From an uncultured bacterium (GTDB lineage: Bacteria > UBP14 > UBA6098 > B30-G16): a stretch of 11,980 bases of DNA. Under the pieces are notes generated by a model. That model had not been told where the DNA came from, ran no database searches, and was given only the letters and a program-made list of their open reading frames with translations. The stretch is taken from positions 1-11,980 of the forward strand of contig CAYUDB010000072.1 of NCBI GenBank assembly GCA_964443405.1. The letters are read 5' to 3'. Numbering within the stretch: position 1 is the first letter of the stretch; every line of letters starts with the position of its first letter. This document shows, piece by piece, positions 1,966 through 11,902 of this stretch. The position numbers were made by a program, and so were the translations under genes.

Positions 1966-2988
1966 TCAATTGGAGTAGAGTTTTACATCGCCAATGCCAT
2001 TTTCGATTGTGCCGCATTCGAAAGCACCGAAGCTATTGAGTTCGTTGAGAAGGGTTTGTGCATTTTCGCGCGCGAGCACAAAGATAAAACCTACACCCAT
2101 GTTGAAAGCACGAAACATTTCATCGTTGTCGATGTCGCCCAAACGTTCGATGAGTGAGAAAATTTTTGGCACTGCAATTGCGTTTTTATCGATGCGAGCG
2201 CAAGTGTCCTTCGGCAAAACTCTGCATAGATTTCCGGTGATGCCGCCGCCTGTTATGTGTGCCATGCCGTGGATATCACATGTGGCACGCGCAATTTGCA
2301 TGGCACTAAGATATAAAGTATGTGGTGCCATGAGAGCTTCGGTTAAAGTGCTTTCTAGGAAAGGGACATATGTTTGTGGTGTGAGTTTGGCATGTTCGAA
2401 GAGCACTTTGCGGGCGAGAGAGTATCCATTTGTGTGCAAACCGTTTGAAGGTAGCGCGATAATTGTGTCACCTTTCTTAATGTTTGCACCGGTGATAAGC
2501 TGCGATTTTGCCACTTCTCCAATAATCACACCTGCTAAATCGAAATGTGATGGCGCGTATAATCCGGGCATTTGAGCTGTTTCGCCACCGATGAGTGCGC
2601 AGTTGGCATTTTTGCAACCCTCTGCTAATCCGGCAACAATATCGGCAATGGTTTGTGGCGGTAGATCGCAGTGTGCAATATAATCGAGAAAAAACAGCGG
2701 TTTTGCGCCGTGAACAGCTATATCGTCCACACAGTGGTGCACAAGGTCGATGCCGATGGTTTGGTAGTTACCAATTTCGGCAGCGATCATTATCTTTGTG
2801 CCCACACCATCTGCCGATGAAAGCATAAGTCGATCGTTGCCAATATCGTATGCACCTGCAAAAAGTCCAATTTCGGAAGCCACTTGCGGAGTGAAAGTGC
2901 TTTTCGCTAATGCAGCTATGCGTTTTTTTGCCTCGTCTGCGGCGCAAATGTCCACACCAGCAGATGAATACGTTATTTTCTCGCTCAT
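1966..2988 (-). CDS. purM: Phosphoribosylformylglycinamidine cyclo-ligase (AIR synthetase), purine biosynthesis
   Basis: The 340-aa protein begins MSEKITYSSAGVDI… and has the conserved blocks …GLFAGAYD…DGVGTKIMIA…VNDIAVHGAKPLFFLDY…ALIGGETAQMPG…HITGGG… characteristic of PurM. ATG is at 2988-2986 with a weak GGTGGA upstream. Confidence 0.95.
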   Translation of the reverse strand: MSEKITYSSAGVDICAADEAKKRIAALAKSTFTPQVASEIGLFAGAYDIGNDRLMLSSADGVGTKIMIAAEIGNYQTIGIDLVHHCVDDIAVHGAKPLFFLDYIAHCDLPPQTIADIVAGLAEGCKNANCALIGGETAQMPGLYAPSHFDLAGVIIGEVAKSQLITGANIKKGDTIIALPSNGLHTNGYSLARKVLFEHAKLTPQTYVPFLESTLTEALMAPHTLYLSAMQIARATCDIHGMAHITGGGITGNLCRVLPKDTCARIDKNAIAVPKIFSLIERLGDIDNDEMFRAFNMGVGFIFVLARENAQTLLNELNSFGAFECGTIENGIGDVKLYSN

Positions 2989-3066
2989 TTAAATGTCCAC
3001 CGTAGTTGAGTTGAACAGAACAATAATTTAGATAGCAAGTGTTTTGCAAATGTTTTCTGTGCGGAT

Positions 3067-5769
3067 CTATTTCATGAAAACAGCACGTTTATTGGCAACT
3101 TTGCCATCGGGTGTCTCGATGTGGATAAAATACATGCCCGAACCTAGATTATCGGGTTGCCAGATGTATTTTTCTGTAACTCGCGCGGCTGCAGGTGCTG
3201 CATTTTTTTGCCATACAAGCTTGCCCGAAAGCGAATAAATGTATACATTTGCGCCAGCCGGTGCATCGATTTCGAGTGCTGCGTTGAAAGGGTTTGGAAA
3301 TATCTGAGTTTCGAAAGACTGTGGGGTGGATAATATGGTTTCGGAAATTTTATCGGGCAAAAATCCACCGAGTTTCATGGTCCAGACAGTGGGGTAGCTC
3401 AAAAGAGGCTCAGTTGTATAACCGGTAACGAAAACCGAACCGTCAAGCCCTGTGCAAATAGCTGCAACCGAATCTTTTCCCGATTTTGAAAACTCACGAG
3501 TGAAAGTTGTGTCGCCATCGTCATCGATTCCAAAAATAAGCCAGTTTGGTTCCATAGAAGGCAATCTGCGGCGCAAACCTGCACCTGTGAAGCCATCAGC
3601 GGTTGCAGTTATAGCAAATGCTACATAACCCTGATCGAAATAGTGCTTTGTCCAAGTTATTGTGCCCGATGTGGAAATTTTTGCGAGATAGATATTTGAA
3701 AACCGGTTTATGCTCGCAGAGTATCTTTCGCCTGCAACGACATAACCATCGTCAACGGCAATTATGTCGCAGCCCGTATGGCGTGTTGTATCGCCAATGA
3801 TGCAAGTCCATAAACTTTCGGCAGCTGCAGAAAATTTTTGCACAAACACCTTAGACGGCGGTACAGCAGGTATTGGATCGACAATCCATTTTCCAACAAT
3901 GGCAAATGTGCCATCTGTAGCGCGACAAATGGCTTCGGGAATATAATTGGTGCCAAAAACAACAGTCTCAGTTTCAACGCCGTCGGAATTTGTAAGTATG
4001 AGTGCTGCCTGAGAAATTCCTTCGGCAGTTATTGCAGCAGCAATAGCGTAACCTGTTGGAGTAGCAACAACATCCACAGCTTTCCCGCCCTCTGGTATGG
4101 GATAGGTCCTTTCCCAAATAACACTGCCAAGCGAATCGATTTTTGCAAGCGCTGGAGCATTATCTTGGACAAATGCAACGACCATGTTTCCGTGGTCTAT
4201 CGCTTGTGCCAAAGCATACGCTTTCCCAGAAATTGCCAAGTTTTCATGGAATACGAGATTGCCGCCAGCGTCGTAGCGGAATAAAAATGGTTCGATGACG
4301 CCACCAAATTCATAATTACCCACACCAAAGCAGCCCGAATCGGCACAGGCAACTAAATCGACACCATAGGTTTGGAGATTAGTGAAAGCTCTTTCCCAGC
4401 CGCCAGTTATGCCTGATGTGATACTAAGTGATTCTTGAGGGCTTACACCGTCATCATAGATCGCGTCGATTTTGTAGAGGTAGTTTGTAAGCTCGGTGGG
4501 CACGGTTTCATCGATGAAAAACCGAGCGGGTGTGGTTGCCAGAAGTTCGCCATTGCGCCAGATACGATAGTTGCGCACGGGAACTGTGATTCTGGTTGGC
4601 GCGTCCCAAGTTAGCTTTATGTGGAGGTCGCGCTTTTGCTGAGAGGCGAAATTTATAGGTGGGCGCTTGGAAACGTAATTTGGAACGATGTTGCCGACTG
4701 TGCTTGTATGTGCGGTCAATCCAGACGGAACTTCGGTGGGCAACGCATAAAATCCGTCAGCAACGCCGCCCCAACCTAAGTTCAGATGATAATAATGTAT
4801 GGAGTCTTCCATTTTGTAGCCATCGCAGACGAGGCAGTGACCAGCCTCGTCGCCCGAGAAAGAGAGCAAAGTTGGCAGATGGTCGAGTGCATTTGTGCGC
4901 ATGACCTCATAAGCGCTTGAAGCAATATTTGCGGCGCGTGCATAATCCCAAGCACCGATAAGGACCATTGGTATGGCAGATGTATTTGCGGCGGAGCCTT
5001 CGTCGGCATATTGCATGCCCAAAACCACTCCACATGCATAACTGATGCGTGCGATCATGTCGGCAGTTGGGTGATTTCCGCTGGCATTGTAATCGATTTC
5101 GGGAATTGAAGCGAGAGTTGCATCGATCCATATTCGCGGTGATGTGGCAGAAGAATAATAACTGTTACGTTCATCGAACATCATCGAGCGCGGATACTCC
5201 CAGTAGTTAACAAGTTGGGCGAATGCGGTGGCAACGCAACCAACTGGGCAAAGGTTTTCGGTGGTAGGGTCAACTGGGCAATAAATATTGTAAGGGTCAC
5301 CTTGATTCCACTGGGTATCGACAAAAGGTCCAACTTCATCAATTGCAGCGGTTTCCAGCATTGTGTAAACCGTGCCGTGCAACAGTTTGTGCCAAATGGC
5401 TTCGTTATGAGCAAGAATTTTTCTATCCAGTTGTGGAACAAAGTTTTGTCGAATTGACATATCGGCGCATAATATATCAAAAAGCGGATTTGACATGTTT
5501 TTTGCGCCGAAATCGTTATCGAATGAATATGCAACAATTGGTGCAATGGTTGTTGCAGGGGCAATCACGATGTAACCTTTCGGCTCGAGAATTGCCAAAT
5601 AAAAGAGGATTTGCCCCTCTTTCTCGATTGTTTCGAAATTTTGGATGGTGCGATTTCCTGCAAAAGCTTTGAATTCTGCCACTTTTTGCGCGGAAAAATA
5701 ATCGACTGGTGCGGCGAAACAAATGTACGTTGCAATAAATGCGATGATAACTAGTGTTGTTTTTTTCAT
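3067..5769 (-). CDS. Secreted multidomain cysteine peptidase, family C10 (streptopain/SpeB/PrtT-like), with an N-terminal signal peptide and pro-region, beta-propeller-like repeats, an FN3-like domain and a C-terminal T9SS (Por) sorting domain
   Basis: ATG at 5769-5767 is preceded by GGAGAG. The signal peptide reads MKKTTLVIIAFIATYICFAA. The C10 active-site blocks match SpeB: QWNQGDPYNIYCP…GCVATAFAQLVNYWEYP (catalytic Cys at about residue 178) and GHCLVCDGY…YHLNLGWGGVADGFYALP (catalytic His region). The middle region has repeated G..A…DG..V/A.G…W motifs and one FN3-like segment. The last ~75 aa (…FPNPFNAALEIDAPAGANVYIYSLSGKLV…GMYFIHIETPDGKVANKRAVFMK) match the T9SS CTD pattern. Confidence 0.9.
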   Translation of the reverse strand: MKKTTLVIIAFIATYICFAAPVDYFSAQKVAEFKAFAGNRTIQNFETIEKEGQILFYLAILEPKGYIVIAPATTIAPIVAYSFDNDFGAKNMSNPLFDILCADMSIRQNFVPQLDRKILAHNEAIWHKLLHGTVYTMLETAAIDEVGPFVDTQWNQGDPYNIYCPVDPTTENLCPVGCVATAFAQLVNYWEYPRSMMFDERNSYYSSATSPRIWIDATLASIPEIDYNASGNHPTADMIARISYACGVVLGMQYADEGSAANTSAIPMVLIGAWDYARAANIASSAYEVMRTNALDHLPTLLSFSGDEAGHCLVCDGYKMEDSIHYYHLNLGWGGVADGFYALPTEVPSGLTAHTSTVGNIVPNYVSKRPPINFASQQKRDLHIKLTWDAPTRITVPVRNYRIWRNGELLATTPARFFIDETVPTELTNYLYKIDAIYDDGVSPQESLSITSGITGGWERAFTNLQTYGVDLVACADSGCFGVGNYEFGGVIEPFLFRYDAGGNLVFHENLAISGKAYALAQAIDHGNMVVAFVQDNAPALAKIDSLGSVIWERTYPIPEGGKAVDVVATPTGYAIAAAITAEGISQAALILTNSDGVETETVVFGTNYIPEAICRATDGTFAIVGKWIVDPIPAVPPSKVFVQKFSAAAESLWTCIIGDTTRHTGCDIIAVDDGYVVAGERYSASINRFSNIYLAKISTSGTITWTKHYFDQGYVAFAITATADGFTGAGLRRRLPSMEPNWLIFGIDDDGDTTFTREFSKSGKDSVAAICTGLDGSVFVTGYTTEPLLSYPTVWTMKLGGFLPDKISETILSTPQSFETQIFPNPFNAALEIDAPAGANVYIYSLSGKLVWQKNAAPAAARVTEKYIWQPDNLGSGMYFIHIETPDGKVANKRAVFMK

Positions 5770-7016
5770 CGTAACTCTCCATCGATTAAAAGGATTTTCT
5801 TGTAGTAATATTCGTTTGATGTTCTAAGGACCACAAAATAAATACCGGTTTCACAATTTAAAAGCTCGATTTTGCAGTTTTTAGAAAAAGTTTTTTCAAA
5901 TACTTGTTTTCCAGTTAACGAGAAAATTTCTATCGAAGCTGGTGAAAAGTTATAATCATTTAGAGTAATTAAATTATATGATAAGGAAATTTTTTCAGTT
6001 GTTGAACTATTTTCATATATCGAAGAACTTTCTGCTATGTCAACTCTAATAATCATAGTATCAATGAAACAACTATTTTGTGCAATTAAACTTACATTAT
6101 ATACTCCATTTTCAAAGTAATGCACTGGATTATTATCGTATGAAGCACTTCCGTCATCAAAATTCCATTCAAAAAATGTTGCATTCTCACATAGATTTGT
6201 AAAAAACACAGTATTCTCTAAAATTTCAACGCTGAAATTTGCATTTGGCACTGGTGAAAATTCATAACATACATCTCGCATTTCCAAAAAAGTCTCTGAT
6301 GCAATATTTTGCAAAAATAAACAAGTTTCAGAATCAAGTGTATGAAAAAAGCTACTTCGTAAATAGGCTTTATCAAACATAATAGCGTAAAAAATACATG
6401 CCCCAAGATAACTTCCCTCAACAGATGGATGACTATTGTCTGCATCCCAAAGATTTATCGTTTCATCAGCAAGTTTTGCATTAACAAATGCTCGCCCTAC
6501 TGGCACTAAAATTGCGTCGCTCATCTGCGCAAATCGAAAATATACTGCCTCTAATGTATCAGTCATTTCCTCAAAATCTTCAAATGCTATGCTGCAAAAT
6601 ATATCAATACACTGAATTCCTCCAAAACGTCGCCCCCATGTTGCATACATTACCGGTAATGAACAATTATAATCACATAAACTATCTAAAACTCGCAAAC
6701 CAATTATACTTTGCGTCTCACGTAAATATTCTATTGTCGGCATTTGACTTTGATCTTGCAATATTACATAATCCCAACGCCGAGATCTCAGTAAACTCAA
6801 CGTCGGTTCATATGTACTGTGCATATATAATGAATATCCACCAGGTGTGCTAGTTTCATAAATTAATGTGTCTCCTAAACTTTCCGCAATTCTTGATATA
6901 AGATCTGGCAAATTATTGTAAAAAGTATAACTGTTTCCTATAAACAAAACTGTTTTCGTACATCCAAAAATTACTGTTGAAATAAACAAAAAAATTATAA
7001 ATACATACTTTCTCAT
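5766..7016 (-). CDS. Secreted SGNH/GDSL-like hydrolase (DUF4886-like catalytic domain) followed by a PKD domain and a T9SS C-terminal sorting domain; possible lipoprotein
   Basis: ATG at 7016-7014 is preceded by GGAGGA. The N-terminus MRKYVFIIFLFISTVIFGC is a signal peptide with a Cys at residue 19. SGNH block I reads VLFIGNSYT and block V reads WDADNSHPSVEGSYLGACIFY. The PKD signature reads FEWNFDDGSASYDNNPVHYFENGVYNVSLIAQN. The C-terminus …IEIFSLTGKQVFEK…ETGIYFVVLRTSNEYYYKKILLID is CTD-like. Its TGA stop overlaps the ATG of the C10 peptidase (ATGA, 5769-5766). Confidence 0.8.
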   Translation of the reverse strand: MRKYVFIIFLFISTVIFGCTKTVLFIGNSYTFYNNLPDLISRIAESLGDTLIYETSTPGGYSLYMHSTYEPTLSLLRSRRWDYVILQDQSQMPTIEYLRETQSIIGLRVLDSLCDYNCSLPVMYATWGRRFGGIQCIDIFCSIAFEDFEEMTDTLEAVYFRFAQMSDAILVPVGRAFVNAKLADETINLWDADNSHPSVEGSYLGACIFYAIMFDKAYLRSSFFHTLDSETCLFLQNIASETFLEMRDVCYEFSPVPNANFSVEILENTVFFTNLCENATFFEWNFDDGSASYDNNPVHYFENGVYNVSLIAQNSCFIDTMIIRVDIAESSSIYENSSTTEKISLSYNLITLNDYNFSPASIEIFSLTGKQVFEKTFSKNCKIELLNCETGIYFVVLRTSNEYYYKKILLIDGELR

Positions 7017-7083
7017 AATATTTCCTCCAGTAAATTATTTATTTTATTAAGTAAATATCTTACTTTGATTCTTAAACTAAATA

Positions 7084-7113
7084 AAGAAACTACCAAAATT
7101 GATAGTTTCTTTA
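7084..7113 (-). terminator. Possible intrinsic terminator between the ligase gene and the SGNH hydrolase gene
   Basis: A perfect 10-bp stem (aaagaaacta / tagtttcttt) with a 10-nt loop lies 44 nt downstream of the ligase stop. The downstream tract is only moderately U-rich on the minus strand (UAUUUAGUUUAAG). The plus-strand side shows AUAGAAUUUUUU. The stem is AT-rich. Confidence 0.35.
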
Positions 7114-7156
7114 TAGAATTTTTTAAGCGAGTTTATTAATTTTGTTTGTCAGTTAA

Positions 7157-8365
7157 TTATACTAAATCAAACAAAATATCATTCTTTTTTCCATAATGCC
7201 TATATATTTTACCATCACTTATAAGCTTTTCAAGCTTTTGTTCTACTAAATATGCAGGCAATGGAACTCGCATATACACATAACTTAATGGTGTATCTTT
7301 TGATATAGTTTCCATAAATATTCTATCTAGAGATACATTACTTACAAGATTTTTACTATATGTATAAGAAATCCAATTAGTAAAATCAATATTCTTTGCA
7401 AATACTCTTATAAGTTCTGTGCATATAACAAACTTATCATTGCTATCTCCAAAAATATCATAGACAAAATCTGCAGGACATAGTTTCTTTTGTGCCAGAG
7501 ATTTTAGTGTATCTAAACTATGTTCATTCGCTTCAAAACTATCTGCTACACTTAATGCATTCGGTATTATCGTATTTAATAATAATTTGCTAACTGCAAT
7601 TTCTTTTTCATTAATTATAAAAGTTGCAGCAGCACCGTTCAAAATTGCATTATATCTATTCAAACCATATTCATATATATTTGGCTTTAATAATTTCGTT
7701 TTTGGAGTATTTGCCAAATATTTCGAAAATAATGCAAACAAAAGCCCTAGTTCATAAACCATTCGCCAATGTATTTGACTATCAAATGCACGAAATTCTA
7801 ACGTTACTTTGCGAGGATATTTAATACATACATCTGTTCCCCACAATAATGGAGAATTTTCAACATCAATTAAAGTCATTGGTCGCGCACAATGACCTGC
7901 ATTATCTCTCAAACGAATTGATTTAAACTCTCCATCAATGCTTGGAGACGAACATGAAATTGCTATAAACGCTGGAACATATGGTAATATCGCATTATGA
8001 ATTTTAACAATATCTTCATAAGATGAAAAACTACCAAGATGAACATGTCCACCAGCTGGATTTTCATCTATATATCTAAATCCACCAGGTACTATTACAC
8101 ATCCATGCTTTTGCGCAACTCGTTGAGCTGTTGTATAGGCAATAAAAATTTTTTCCTCAAGCTCATAAACATTTGTAGTCATACCTATACGAAGTTCTAA
8201 CAAATCAATATCCTCTCCAATACCATACGAAGGTAAAATATTCCTTAGCTCCAAAAGTATTTTCTCATACTTTTGCTTATCTGCCGAAAAGCCTGTATCA
8301 ATATCATTTACAAAAACTTCCCAGTCAATGCCAAGAGTTAGTTTTTCTAAAATGTGACTACTCAT
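7157..8365 (-). CDS. YbdK / glutamate-cysteine ligase family 2 (GCS2) carboxylate-amine ligase
   Basis: The 402-aa protein has an ATG at 8365-8363 preceded by AAGGAGAG. Its blocks align by eye to E. coli YbdK: LTLGIDWEVFVND vs FTLGIELEMQVVN; HGCVIVPGGFRY vs HHLEICGGGTHPF; GGHVHLG vs GQHVHVG; LPYVPAFIAISCSSPS vs RFVPHFIALSAASPY; TLEFRAFD vs TVEVRVMD. Confidence 0.8.
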   Translation of the reverse strand: MSSHILEKLTLGIDWEVFVNDIDTGFSADKQKYEKILLELRNILPSYGIGEDIDLLELRIGMTTNVYELEEKIFIAYTTAQRVAQKHGCVIVPGGFRYIDENPAGGHVHLGSFSSYEDIVKIHNAILPYVPAFIAISCSSPSIDGEFKSIRLRDNAGHCARPMTLIDVENSPLLWGTDVCIKYPRKVTLEFRAFDSQIHWRMVYELGLLFALFSKYLANTPKTKLLKPNIYEYGLNRYNAILNGAAATFIINEKEIAVSKLLLNTIIPNALSVADSFEANEHSLDTLKSLAQKKLCPADFVYDIFGDSNDKFVICTELIRVFAKNIDFTNWISYTYSKNLVSNVSLDRIFMETISKDTPLSYVYMRVPLPAYLVEQKLEKLISDGKIYRHYGKKNDILFDLV

Positions 8366-8533
8366 TTTCTCTCCTTAACTATCTTTTTCATTAATGTAAA
8401 AGATAATTTTCACTATACTTTTTTCTATATTATCAAGTATATTAAGTTTTTAATTAATAAAATATACTTTTTTAATTTCAGAAAAAAGTTTATAGTGAAA
8501 ACTATATTTCACATAATAAGTTTTCAATAATTT

Positions 8534-9679
8534 CTACGCACGTGGAATTATTACAGCTTCACTGCGAGGTGTTGCGTAAGTTCCATTAGTTGCCCAAACT
8601 TGCATGCGTAAATCCATTTCACTATCTGGTCGAACATACATATAATTTACTGTAATTGGATCACCAAATTCCTCATCATTTGCTAATACCAAATAAAACA
8701 TAGGAATCGGAAGTTCATCCCATCTCAACATCATTTCAGATGCATCATATCTCAAATTTTTTATAGACATATACGCTTCAAGTGTAACTCTTATCGAAGC
8801 TGTTGCATCACTTTCATCATTTCCTGAAATACTTCTTACACGAAAATCATGCGTTCCAAAATACGGATCTTTCATTATCCAATATGTATTTTTAGTCTCC
8901 GCGACAATTGTATAATTCTCTTCAGAAGATTTTTTCATTTCAATACGATATTCTTTCGCATTATCAGCAGCTATCCACTTAAAGCGAGCTGCTTTATTAT
9001 CATATATAAATCCTGTAGGTGGCAATAATTTATGTTGTATAGGTCTATTCCAAACTTCAAAACCATATTCAGAAAGATGTTGATCGTATTTTTTATATGG
9101 TAACTTTATATAAAGCCAATTTCTAATCTTTGCCAAAACTTCTATATATTCCTTCCGTTTAAAATCTCTTTTTTGAGTTGCAGTAGTCGATATTGCCTGA
9201 GTTTCATTTGAATTACGAACTGCATCGGAATAAATTGAAAGTTGTGTAATAATATCATTTTTAACTTGCGCATCGATTTGCTGAGGTGTTCCATCCCAAT
9301 CATTAAGATGGGGGATAGTTACACTTCTTACAAGCGTGATGAGTTCATTTGAAACTTTTGGCAAAAGAATATCAACACCAAGTCGATGGAACATAATGTT
9401 TGACAATTCTTTGTCGGCAACAACACGAATAAACTTTTTCATGTCGTAAATTGTTTCGATAAGCACATTTTGCTCTTCGGCAGCCTTTTTGACAAGTGCT
9501 TCTTTTGAGATACGCAAATCTAACACTTGCGCCTGAATTGTGCGAAACTCATGAAAAACTGTATTAAACTCGGCGAACAATGCAGCAGGAAGCACCCAAG
9601 CTTCGGCAGCATATTTGTTGTTTGCATCGGTTATCATGTAACCTTGCGTTATAAGGTCGTCAAATGATACTGTAGCCAT
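8534..9679 (-). CDS. Hypothetical cytoplasmic protein: alpha-helical N-terminal domain of about 215 aa plus two C-terminal fibronectin-type-III-like beta-sandwich repeats
   Basis: ATG at 9679-9677 is preceded by AAGGGGGA. No signal peptide is present. C-terminal segments such as PPTGFIYDNKAARFKWIAADNAKEYRIEMKK…YTIVAETKNTYWIMKDP…FRVRSISGNDESDATASIRVT and …LRWDELPIPMFYLVLANDEEFGDPITVNYMYVRPDSEMDL…VWATNGTYATPRSEAVIIP have an FN3-like pattern (W…Y…L…Y/F hydrophobic alternation). The N-terminal domain has no motif I can name. Confidence 0.6.
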   Translation of the reverse strand: MATVSFDDLITQGYMITDANNKYAAEAWVLPAALFAEFNTVFHEFRTIQAQVLDLRISKEALVKKAAEEQNVLIETIYDMKKFIRVVADKELSNIMFHRLGVDILLPKVSNELITLVRSVTIPHLNDWDGTPQQIDAQVKNDIITQLSIYSDAVRNSNETQAISTTATQKRDFKRKEYIEVLAKIRNWLYIKLPYKKYDQHLSEYGFEVWNRPIQHKLLPPTGFIYDNKAARFKWIAADNAKEYRIEMKKSSEENYTIVAETKNTYWIMKDPYFGTHDFRVRSISGNDESDATASIRVTLEAYMSIKNLRYDASEMMLRWDELPIPMFYLVLANDEEFGDPITVNYMYVRPDSEMDLRMQVWATNGTYATPRSEAVIIPRA

Positions 9680-9898
9680 TTTGTCCCCCTTGTTTGTTTG
9701 TTTTCACTAAAAATATACACATTTTTTTTGAGAAAAAAACTTTTTTTTTCATTTCATCAAACTTTTTTTCAAAATCTTTTGTAAATGAATTATATGCACA
9801 ATCAAAGTATTTTGTTAAGCTTTTGCAGATGTAATTTGTTTATAGAAATATAGTTAAGCATTTAGCAAAGTTTAGTATATCACTCAAAAAGAAAGTTT

Positions 9899-10345
9899 TT
9901 CATCAAGTAAAAATCTTATTTCATTAAGCAAAGTATCCATTTCATCAAATAAAAATTTCATTTTAATAGTTCCACAAACCATTTCATTAACCAAAAATTT
10001 TATTTCATTAACCAAACCTTTTATTTCAACAACTCAAAAAAACTTTTTCACAAGTAAAAATCTTTTTACATAATTTCCATTTATTATTTCATTAACAAAA
10101 CTTTCTTCAGAAGTATTTCCAAATTTCATTTTATTAAATCCAAATTTTTTGTCATCAAGTAAAAATTATTCAGCAACAGTTCCAAACTTTTCAGAATCAA
10201 GTAAAAATTCTTTATCAATAGATAAATTTTTCATTTTATTAGTTCCAAATTTCATTTCATTAAATCCAAAACTTTTTTCATCAACTAGAAATTTTATTTC
10301 AGTTCATCCAAATTATTTATTATTACTTCCAAAAAAGTTTTTCAT
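9899..10345. repeat. Degenerate tandem array of about 21 copies of a 21-bp unit (consensus approximately TTTCATYAASYAAAAATTTTAT), with a superimposed 63-bp higher-order period, in an 800-bp non-coding AT-rich spacer
   Basis: TTCA(T/C/G) cores begin at 9899, 9920, 9941, 9957, 9983, 10004, 10025, 10047, (10066), 10088, 10106, 10125, (10150), 10169, 10190, (10212), 10230, 10251, 10277, 10298 and 10341. Spacings cluster at 21 (or 16+26, 41-43). Each unit carries an A4-6T3-4 tract. The 63-bp super-repeat is clear between 10181-10240, 10241-10300 and 10301-10345. Confidence 0.8.
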
Positions 10346-10388
10346 AAAAAATTTGAGTAAATAATCAAATAAAAAATCATAAAAGAAA

Positions 10389-10419
10389 GGCTACCCAATT
10401 ACTTGAGTAGCTTTTTTTT
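10389..10419. terminator. Hairpin with flanking A/T runs; a bidirectional intrinsic terminator. It is strongest on the plus strand (T8) and also closes the minus-strand 420-aa gene.
   Basis: The stem is ggctac…gtagc(t), with internal caa/ttg pairing in the loop. The plus strand has the stem followed by TTTTTTTT at 10412-10419. The minus strand has the stem followed by CUUUCUUUUAUGAUUUUUU. It lies 65-95 nt downstream of the stop at 10484. Confidence 0.5.
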
Positions 10420-10483
10420 CTTTCTCATCGACCAAAAATAATTATATTGACAGTCGAGTTTTTCTGTAAAACTACAAAAACTT

Positions 10484-11746
10484 TCAGATAGTCATGCCGG
10501 CAAATTTGCAATTGACAAAATCTTTATCAACATTTACGTAACCAATGTGGTTCATTCCGGAAATTGAAAGTTTGATTGGCAAAACTTTTGTTTCATTTTC
10601 AAAATGTATTTCGACAGTTTTGTCACGCAAATTTTGAGTCGATGCGATAATTATTGCAGTTTTGCCTTCATGTTGAACTTTTGCCAAACAATTTCCATTG
10701 TCAATAACAAATTCATCGCACACAGCCAAAGCAAGTTTATTCTCTGTAACTTTTTGTGCATTAACCTTATGCTCTTTAAAAAGAACTCGCATTTGAGGTA
10801 TAATCGCATATTTATTCATCCAAACTTTAATCACATCATTTGGGTTTGTAGCACAAATAAATTTTTCATTAATGTCATCAAAAGTTGCTATAAAGAAAAA
10901 TTTTGCGCTATCATCTAGAAGAGTTTCGTCAGTTTCAAAATCTTCCATAAGCGCCCAAACTTCCGAAAAAGGTGTTTTTGAAAACTTTCGTGCATCATCT
11001 TTTGGAACAAAAATAGTAACGCCAGTGTTTCCAATGCCAGATTCACGTAAATTTATAAACGCAGAGGAGCTTTGTTTTTTTGAATCGGCTTTTTCATCAT
11101 CGATATTAACTGATGTAGAGATCTCAAAAAATGGATTTTCTACATCACAATTAACGTTAACATTTCCGACAAATGCTTTTTTCTTCACTTGGAACAGAAA
11201 ATTCTTTGAACTTTTCAATAAAGTAGTTTTATCATGTAAAATTTTGAACGGCAAAAACTTTTCGGAAAGCGCTGAAAATATTCCTTCCTTTCGTGAACGA
11301 AAATAAATGCCAGTTGCAGTTTTTACTGTAACTCCATAAAAAACTTTGGACATTAGCAAATTTTGTTTGTTTATTTTTGAGAAATTTGTAATATTACACC
11401 CACGAATAGGCGACATGCGCAAATTTGCAAATGCATTTGAACAATCAAACTCATCATATCCATCGCCATCAATGTCGCCTAAGAAAAATGAGTTTTTCGT
11501 TATGTGAAATTCTTTTGCAAACTGCGAAAGTATTTTTTCTGTTTGATCGTTTGTTAGAGCAATAATATCTCCAACTTCGGGCATAATTGAATTTTTATCG
11601 AACGTTCTTTCAATAATAAATTCTATACCGCGAAGTTTTGAGGAAATCTTTGCAGTATCGGCAGTAGTATTTTGAGCGCGACATTTAAGAGTGAAATTGT
11701 TGTCATTCGCTCCAAAAACATCGATAACTTTGGCTATAATTTGCAT
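10484..11746 (-). CDS. Hypothetical protein, 420 aa, no signal peptide, with a single DxDxDG calcium-binding-like loop (FLGDIDGDGYDEF)
   Basis: The ORF track starts at a TTG at 11758. The better start is the ATG at 11746-11744 (MQIIAKVIDVF…), preceded by GGAGG with a 5-nt spacer (revcomp of 11747-11760 is ATTTGGAGGTTGAA). I recognise no catalytic motif. Composition is low-GC, like its neighbours. Confidence 0.7.
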   Translation of the reverse strand: MQIIAKVIDVFGANDNNFTLKCRAQNTTADTAKISSKLRGIEFIIERTFDKNSIMPEVGDIIALTNDQTEKILSQFAKEFHITKNSFFLGDIDGDGYDEFDCSNAFANLRMSPIRGCNITNFSKINKQNLLMSKVFYGVTVKTATGIYFRSRKEGIFSALSEKFLPFKILHDKTTLLKSSKNFLFQVKKKAFVGNVNVNCDVENPFFEISTSVNIDDEKADSKKQSSSAFINLRESGIGNTGVTIFVPKDDARKFSKTPFSEVWALMEDFETDETLLDDSAKFFFIATFDDINEKFICATNPNDVIKVWMNKYAIIPQMRVLFKEHKVNAQKVTENKLALAVCDEFVIDNGNCLAKVQHEGKTAIIIASTQNLRDKTVEIHFENETKVLPIKLSISGMNHIGYVNVDKDFVNCKFAGMTI

Positions 11747-11902
11747 TTCAACCTCCAAATTTTTTCTAGCAACCAGTTAATCATTTATAGAGTAAAAACT
11801 TTTATAATTTGTGTCAAGTAGTTTTTTCACTTCAACGTAAAAACTGTAAATTTTATTTAATCGATAAACTTTTTCAAATCATCATTAATTTTTGATAATT
11901 AC

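Follow-up and report, generated by a model that had tools for sequence, protein, structure and literature searches.

A predicted GCS2-type carboxylate-amine ligase, its neighbouring partner gene and an interleaved period-21 repeat array in an uncultured bacterium

Carboxylate-amine ligases of the GCS2 family activate a carboxylate at the expense of ATP and then form an amide, and the GhExE motif, which is described as absolutely conserved in GCS2 and in PafA, is part of the Mg/ATP site (PMC2588565). The same work describes the roles of GhExE and of the arginines, among them the strand-5 arginine (arginine finger) of the carboxylate-amine/ammonia ligases, and derives PafA and Dop, members of the same carboxylate-amine ligase superfamily, from a GCS2-like ancestor (PMC2588565). 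The physiological role of the GCS2/YbdK-type ligases has been a long-standing gap. Here we analyse a complete NCBI contig of 11,980 nt (CAYUDB010000072.1, hereafter the window) from an uncultured bacterium, the minus strand of which carries all its genes, including one for a predicted, divergent GCS2-type ligase of 402 amino acids (aa). An earlier reading of the window from its sequence alone (the sequence-only reading) had joined this ligase with two neighbouring genes in one system. Our preferred interpretation, which we hold tentatively, is that the neighbourhood consists of two independent modules that have become interleaved: module A, the ligase gene paired with the gene of a 420-aa partner protein, which would make a small-molecule amide, and module B, a period-21 repeat array with the gene of a 381-aa protein.

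The three genes lie co-oriented on the minus strand, just as the sequence-only reading had placed them. The open reading frame (ORF) of the ligase, assigned to a divergent clade of the GCS2 superfamily by Pfam, NCBIfam and PDB-profile comparison, occupies 7157..8365; that of the 381-aa protein, with a helical bundle in its AlphaFold model and a PHROG match of FN3 type, occupies 8534..9679; and that of the 420-aa partner occupies 10484..11746, its ATG at 11746 following a GGAGG ribosome-binding site. The repeat array that had been seen between the last two genes was recovered by autocorrelation, with peaks at lags 21/42/63, as an unstranded, degenerate, AT-rich tandem array of ~23 units at ~9860..10345, with a period of 21 nt and a 42/63-nt higher order. 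All three genes are under purifying selection, with dN/dS values of 0.11 (420-aa), 0.09 (381-aa) and 0.15 (ligase) relative to locus L002, which is 82% identical (L numbers denote the loci compared). Reading by eye showed no signal-like hydrophobic stretch at the N-terminus of any of these proteins, in agreement with the earlier view that the 381-aa protein lacks a signal peptide and that the neighbours of the ligase are cytoplasmic.

The ligase matches the Pfam family GCS2 (PF04107) with 32.1 bits against a gathering cut-off of 21 (E=1e-7), the aligned part covering only residues 104-151. It misses the NCBIfam YbdK/GshA models, with 43.9 bits against 176.4 for TIGR02050 and 40.6 against 425 for NF010040. 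When a profile of the ligase clade was compared with the PDB, the YbdK structures 1r8g and 1tt4 were the sole matches (E ~4e-5). Three catalytic blocks are collinear between the window ligase and YbdK: GIDWE with LGIELE, the histidine block GGHVHLG with GQHVHVG, and the Glu/Arg block of core strand 5, TLEFRAFDS with TVEVRVMDT. The nine clade members compared all have G12-I-D14-W-E16, E57/R59, H107/H109 and E190/R192/D195 in common, and the whole clade carries the signature GhDxE instead of GhExE, a conservative Glu to Asp replacement at the first acidic position. The collinear blocks bear out the motif resemblance to YbdK that had been claimed, but its closeness was overstated, as only ~45 aa score and 44 bits stand against 176. 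The protein is probably a divergent carboxylate-amine ligase with the GCS2/glutamine-synthetase fold and is predicted to be active; judged by its sequence it is neither a YbdK orthologue nor an ordinary housekeeping YbdK. Residues 340-402 form a conserved C-terminal tail of ~60 aa (...DTP...PLP..Y.E.....GK....G.KN...) that is absent from YbdK. Relatives are scarce: a word-index search of 5.8 billion proteins returned three matches, at 95, 82 and 40% identity, and in all about a dozen relatives are present in billions of proteins.

Outside L001-L004, which represent the lineage of the window, a 420-family gene stands immediately 5' of the ligase gene in every recovered locus that has a ligase homologue and readable upstream DNA. 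This adjacency was seen in L005-7, L014 and L015-L024, where the two genes overlap by up to 8 nt or stand up to 13 nt apart. In L005, whose ligase is 40% identical to that of the window, the upstream partner is full-length and matches the window 420-aa protein in BLASTP with E=4e-20 over 379 aa. Among GTDB species genomes a scan yielded one metagenome-assembled genome, JAGGZE010000058, in which the gene of a 428-aa partner homologue runs 8 nt into the start of the ligase gene. A metagenome scan that used the ligase alignment as its query, the presence of the partner and of the 381 family being established by local hidden Markov model (HMM) searches, gave ten additional loci at 39-47% identity. 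The further lineages that bear the pair number ~10 and are 38-47% identical to the window. By the same local HMM searches no 381-family gene was found in the ~10 more distant ligase lineages. No period-21 array was found beside ligase pairs that lack a 381-family gene. Since the adjacency of the pair holds and the 381-family gene is absent elsewhere, the conserved unit is the two-gene module of 420-aa partner and ligase. The link that had been drawn between the ligase and both of its neighbours therefore survives for the partner, which lies 5' in all the other loci, but not for the FN3 protein, which accompanies the ligase only in L001-L004. Our literature search found no description of such a pair.

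The genes that flank the pair vary and include Hdr/Mvh-type oxidoreductases with riboflavin genes, PorP/SprF-like proteins with immunoglobulin (Ig)-domain proteins, and GldA/F/G-like ATP-binding cassette (ABC) genes. Between L016 and L020 the partner is 41% and the ligase 55% identical, against 64-78% for neighbouring DUF3857/transglutaminase-like genes; the pair therefore evolves comparatively fast. That the partner changes faster than both the ligase and the flanking genes would be in keeping with a role in protein tagging, in which the ligase would add an amino acid or peptide to the 420-aa partner or to another protein, or would link the carboxylate of the partner to a target, in a PafA/Pup- or RimK-like manner. 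The strict coupling of the ligase to one protein partner fits this proposal, as does the position of GCS2 as the nearest relative of the Pup ligase (PMC2588565). The C-terminus of the partner can be read in both directions: Glu is the final residue in 6 of the 12 full-length aligned partners, but the terminus as a whole is not conserved, and the window protein ends in ...GMTI. This variability weakens the tagging proposal, together with the absence of a Pup-like small ORF from the flanks of the window, L002, L014, L015, L016 and L020 and of the genes of a Pup system, since the ligase has no match to the Pup_ligase family and proteasome and depupylase genes were not found. A protein of 420 aa, moreover, far exceeds the size of any known tag, and we consider tagging unlikely.

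The partner family is as rare as the ligase, with only ~10 members found when 1.84 billion representative proteins were searched exhaustively with HMMER. The DxDxDG loop that had been noticed in the window protein is present as DIDGDGYDE at residues 91-99, and its D91, D95, G96 and E99 hardly vary among the family members. The accompanying statement that the protein has no recognisable domains was not quite right, as the loop starts a GH57-C-type signature, albeit at a sub-threshold level. The Pfam family PF09095 (AmyA-gluTrfs_C), the C-terminal beta-sandwich of GH57 alpha-amylase/4-alpha-glucanotransferase, has matches in 6 of 13 family members (best E=2e-4), and the profile of the 420 family matches residues 388-428 of the T. 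litoralis 4-alpha-glucanotransferase structure 1k1w with E=0.005. On these matches it is plausible, with scores that remain sub-threshold, that the loop is the opening motif of a GH57-C-type sandwich. Further along the family proteins there are single weak, collinear matches to GH36N, to the GH94 supersandwich and to DUF6807. The probable layout of the partner is thus an N-terminal domain of ~85 aa followed by a GH57-C/galactose-mutarotase-type beta-sandwich that opens with DIDGDGYDE...SPIRGC. Neither this protein nor the 381-aa protein falls in a housekeeping family.

Under our preferred interpretation, module A would be a rare two-gene operon whose order is constant in each lineage in which it was found. 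Because the ligase keeps the metal/ATP and arginine motifs, it can be expected to use acyl-phosphate amide chemistry, phosphorylating a carboxylate and coupling it to an amine. The 420-aa protein would be a non-catalytic subunit with a carbohydrate-associated beta-sandwich. As its gene abuts or overlaps that of the ligase, the two proteins probably associate stoichiometrically, and in this complex the 420-aa protein may supply or select a second, carbohydrate-like substrate. The likeliest product would be a small-molecule amide, for example of an amino acid with a sugar-like amine or acid. The complex, the carbohydrate-type ligand and the small-molecule product are what we infer from sequence; the constant gene order, the co-occurrence of the two genes and the conservation of their motifs were directly observed.

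Module B would comprise a period-21 array, a promoter-like site and the 381-aa helical/FN3 gene, and would be a unit of variable genome regions. The AlphaFold model of the 381-aa protein has a predicted local distance difference test (pLDDT) score of ~90 for residues 1-205, an N-terminal bundle of long helices, and of <50 for the remainder, where the C-terminal half is modelled as beta structure with low confidence. Fold searches returned generic helical bundles only, and no DNA-binding fold was recognised in the protein. The two FN3-like domains proposed for it earlier are weakly supported: a PHROG tail-protein profile of FN3 type matches residues 234-298 (E=3e-5), Pfam fn3 (PF00041) reaches only E=0.03 in two of nine family members, and the corresponding part of the model is the one of low confidence.

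Homologues of the 381-aa protein in other lineages are 30-39% identical over the full alignment, and those examined in L008-L013 have no ligase nearby, an observation that establishes the independence of the two modules from the other side. In L008 the gene comes after a methylase (N6/N4) gene and a HinfI-type restriction gene (L008 2-2098) and lies upstream of a phosphofructokinase gene, which it also precedes in L010; in L011/12 it is flanked by genes for an acyl-CoA dehydrogenase and an IS110 transposase (L011 3286-4308); and in L013 it follows an ORF (1-705) that resembles, by eye only, the C-terminus of a PD-(D/E)xK restriction enzyme. The restriction-modification and IS110 neighbours suggest that 381-family genes reside in variable or defence-type regions.

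These contexts bear directly on the idea of a three-gene system advanced in the sequence-only reading, in which all three proteins would work together, the FN3 protein serving as scaffold or substrate. Within L001-L004 the order 420-aa gene, array, 381-aa gene and ligase gene is kept, the latter two genes appear to be co-transcribed, and the purifying selection noted above extends to all three genes. The arrangement is nevertheless confined to these close relatives, at 79-97% amino-acid identity; some ten other ligase lineages do without a 381-family gene, and the 381-family genes examined in other lineages stand without a ligase, their neighbours being genes of restriction-modification, IS110, acyl-CoA dehydrogenase or phosphofructokinase. 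On grounds of co-occurrence a three-component system comes close to being refuted, and we regard it as highly improbable.

The distribution of the arrays indicates that the window array belongs with the 381-aa gene and not with the ligase pair. An array of period 21/42/63 nt directly precedes the 381-family gene in five of the six lineages examined, comparable arrays being present in L001-4, L008/9, L010 and L011/12, and L013 has the gene without an array. The arrays lie at 9860-10345 in the window, 2545-3480 and 4715-6888 in L008, 209-440 in L010, 1873-2131 in L011 and 4494-4920 in L002. The sequence of the repeat unit differs by lineage and the 21-nt period is kept: the unit is AT-rich, GATGAAA...TTTTTACTT, in the window, GTGGAAAACGACCCAGCGCTT in L008 and CGTGGAGGATGACCA... 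in L010. Downstream of its 381-family gene L008 also has arrays of 42, 105, 189 and 357 nt, and the higher-order periods in L002 and L008 are mostly multiples of 21 (42, 63, 105, 168, 189, 210, 231, 273, 357). Array length differs greatly between L008 and L010 despite their synteny.

The most economical idea for the arrays is that they are phased cis-acting DNA acting with the 381-family protein. They would then be phased protein-binding sites or curved DNA, the protein might for instance bind its own array, and module B would be a self-contained element. The recurrence of the array directly upstream in five of six lineages despite differing sequence argues for this view, and so do the multiples of 21 in L002 and L008, which keep a two-helical-turn phase, and the large difference in length between the syntenic L008 and L010. 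A coding signature is absent, but a period of 21 nt is also divisible by three, and in L008 and L002 the arrays are traversed by long ORFs. The lack of an array in L013 and of a recognised DNA-binding fold in the protein also tells against a cis-acting role, as does the absence of replication and partition genes nearby: the window and loci L001-L013 yielded no Rep/Par or other replication or partition family. We therefore regard the cis-acting element as possible though rather doubtful.

The alternative that the array encodes a heptad-repeat protein was rejected as the principal explanation, as several stops interrupt the frame both in the window and in L010; it is also disfavoured by ORF lengths of 87, 161 and 328 aa and by third codon positions that are the least variable. 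The window array is probably non-coding. An RNA gene within the arrays was likewise rejected, as no Rfam family was matched at the gathering score in the window and six related loci.

Signals for transcription and translation suggest how the two modules may be expressed in the window. A promoter-like site, TTGAAA-16-TAAAAT, lies upstream of the 420-aa gene at 11850..11877 on the minus strand; it agrees with the consensus at 10/12 positions, a level at which chance matches are expected in AT-rich DNA. Just 3' of the same gene a hairpin scan found a terminator-like hairpin with a T-run (10390..10411, minus strand). A second promoter-like site, TTAACA-18-TATAAT, which was found by consensus scan only (11/12 positions) and does not in itself point to a function, occupies 9789..9818 in the stretch that separates the array from the 381-aa gene, and a second terminator-like hairpin, from the hairpin scan, lies 3' of the ligase gene at 7081..7114, both on the minus strand. 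The ligase gene has its own ribosome-binding site, AAGGAG, and no terminator was found between it and the 381-aa gene; the two are probably co-transcribed in the window lineage. The simplest explanation would be an insertion of module B into module A, between its partner and ligase genes, in this lineage. With module B in this position, the 420-aa gene would end at its own terminator and the ligase would probably be read from the promoter of the 381-aa gene.

The hairpin of the 420-aa gene also recurs in repeats. L002 carries at 2826-4497 a 189-nt unit (9 x 21 nt) in 8.8 copies of 89% identity, each with the terminator-like hairpin of its 420-aa gene, and the window holds a single copy (10390-10411) of the hairpin that is amplified in L002. 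In L014, a locus without a 381-family gene, a 187-nt tandem repeat with a hairpin (7551-8000; 2.4 copies, 87% identity) lies just downstream of the ligase. The heptanucleotide AATGGAG is repeated 9.6 times in an intergenic region of L020 (10231-10297), a few genes downstream of the pair.

Several observations weigh against the two-module interpretation and account for our tentative wording. The replacement of GhExE by GhDxE throughout the ligase clade means that the activity could differ from that of GCS2. The matches to PF09095 begin at profile position 1 and span only the first 35-44 of its 284 positions, the best score of 21.4 bits falls below the cut-off of 22, and the window 420-aa protein itself has no match to this family. 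Its AlphaFold model, built from a two-sequence alignment, has a pLDDT of 27 and is unusable. In the loci examined the pair is not embedded in any sugar or polysaccharide gene cluster. The insertion of module B is suggested by the distribution of arrangements, and as the window lineage is the most divergent branch, the polarity of the change is not proven. Within that lineage (L001-L004), finally, the 381-aa gene and the ligase stay together, and a local functional link between them is possible.

The low GC content that had been reported for the neighbourhood was also found here: GC is 42-52% left of ~5750 and 21-37% from there to the end of the contig. The drop is sharp (from ~45-50% to ~30%) and falls at 5766-5769, where the start of a C10-peptidase gene overlaps the stop of the gene for a DUF4886-PKD-type IX secretion system (T9SS) protein (5766-7016, minus strand; ORF and family scan). 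The right edge of the low-GC block is not visible, as the block reaches the contig end. The left half encodes a YfiH/laccase-type protein, an SPFH protein, PurM and the C10 peptidase, which has a T9SS sorting domain.

Secreted DUF3857/transglutaminase-like protein pairs, T9SS cargo, PorP/SprF-like proteins and GldA/F/G-like genes recur near the pair (L015/L016 8282-12550; L020 11401-15030; window 3067-7016; L014 1264-4615; L020 1-5572). Their recurrence may reflect mere abundance in genomes of the Fibrobacteres-Chlorobi-Bacteroidetes (FCB) type. The transglutaminase/DUF3857 neighbours were dropped as candidate functional partners, as they occur in only two related lineages, are convergent with or distant from the pair, and have signal peptides. 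A defence system was dropped as well, the PADLOC-DB 2.0 defence models giving no matches for the ligase, the 381-aa or the 420-aa protein. We also set aside a phage or viral origin: the 381-aa protein had no phage match in tblastn, neither the 381 family nor the ligase had relatives in IMG/VR, and the PHROG match is a domain-level match to FN3 only.

The pair is of interest because an obligate, co-evolving partner with a carbohydrate-associated fold gives a concrete handle on the role of GCS2/YbdK-type ligases; to our knowledge the stand-alone YbdK offers no comparable one. The analysis also disposes of the cytoplasmic FN3 scaffold beside the ligase, which was a misleading lead, and exposes an unexplained regularity, the period-21 arrays before 381-family genes, in which the period is conserved and the sequence is not. 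At its most ambitious, and we think improbably, the pair could be a hitherto undescribed two-subunit amide synthetase of T9SS-bearing FCB-like bacteria. In such an enzyme the GCS2-type ligase would receive a glycoside amine or acid from a sugar-binding subunit of GH57-C type and form a novel conjugate of amino acid and sugar, such as a low-molecular-weight thiol or compatible solute; or the ligase might covalently modify its partner. Separately, the arrays and the 381-family protein could constitute a new type of repeat-plus-protein element in variable genome regions.

In comparison with known systems, module B differs from the iteron- or centromere-like arrays of plasmids and phages, which have a spacing of ~20-22 bp, in its chromosomal setting, in the absence of Rep/Par/replicon genes and of relatives in viral collections, and in the lack of a recognised DNA-binding fold in the 381-aa protein; like them it has tandem degenerate units at two-helical-turn spacing beside a lineage-matched protein gene. 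The 420-aa family resembles the C-terminal sandwich of GH57 enzymes (PF09095; 1k1w), at a sub-threshold level, in its opening motif, D-x-D-x-DG-x-x-E ... N ... SP-x-(R/Y)GG, and unlike these enzymes it has an unrelated N-terminal domain of ~85 aa in place of the GH57 catalytic domain. Like the PafA/Dop-Pup system, the pair couples a ligase gene with a protein partner of its own, but here the partner is a folded protein of 420 aa, and neither a small disordered tag gene nor proteasome/ATPase genes are present. From YbdK the window ligase differs in falling below all NCBIfam YbdK/GshA cut-offs, with only ~45 residues that align significantly, in its GhDxE signature, in its extra conserved C-terminal tail of ~60 aa and in its extreme rarity. 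Its clade also has an obligate neighbouring partner gene, and we know of none reported for YbdK. Its closest resemblance is nevertheless to YbdK/GCS2 (PF04107; E. coli YbdK 1r8g, Salmonella 1tt4), with which it shares its size (402 aa against 372-396 aa), collinear catalytic blocks, a Pfam score above the gathering cut-off and, as we would expect, the same chemistry.

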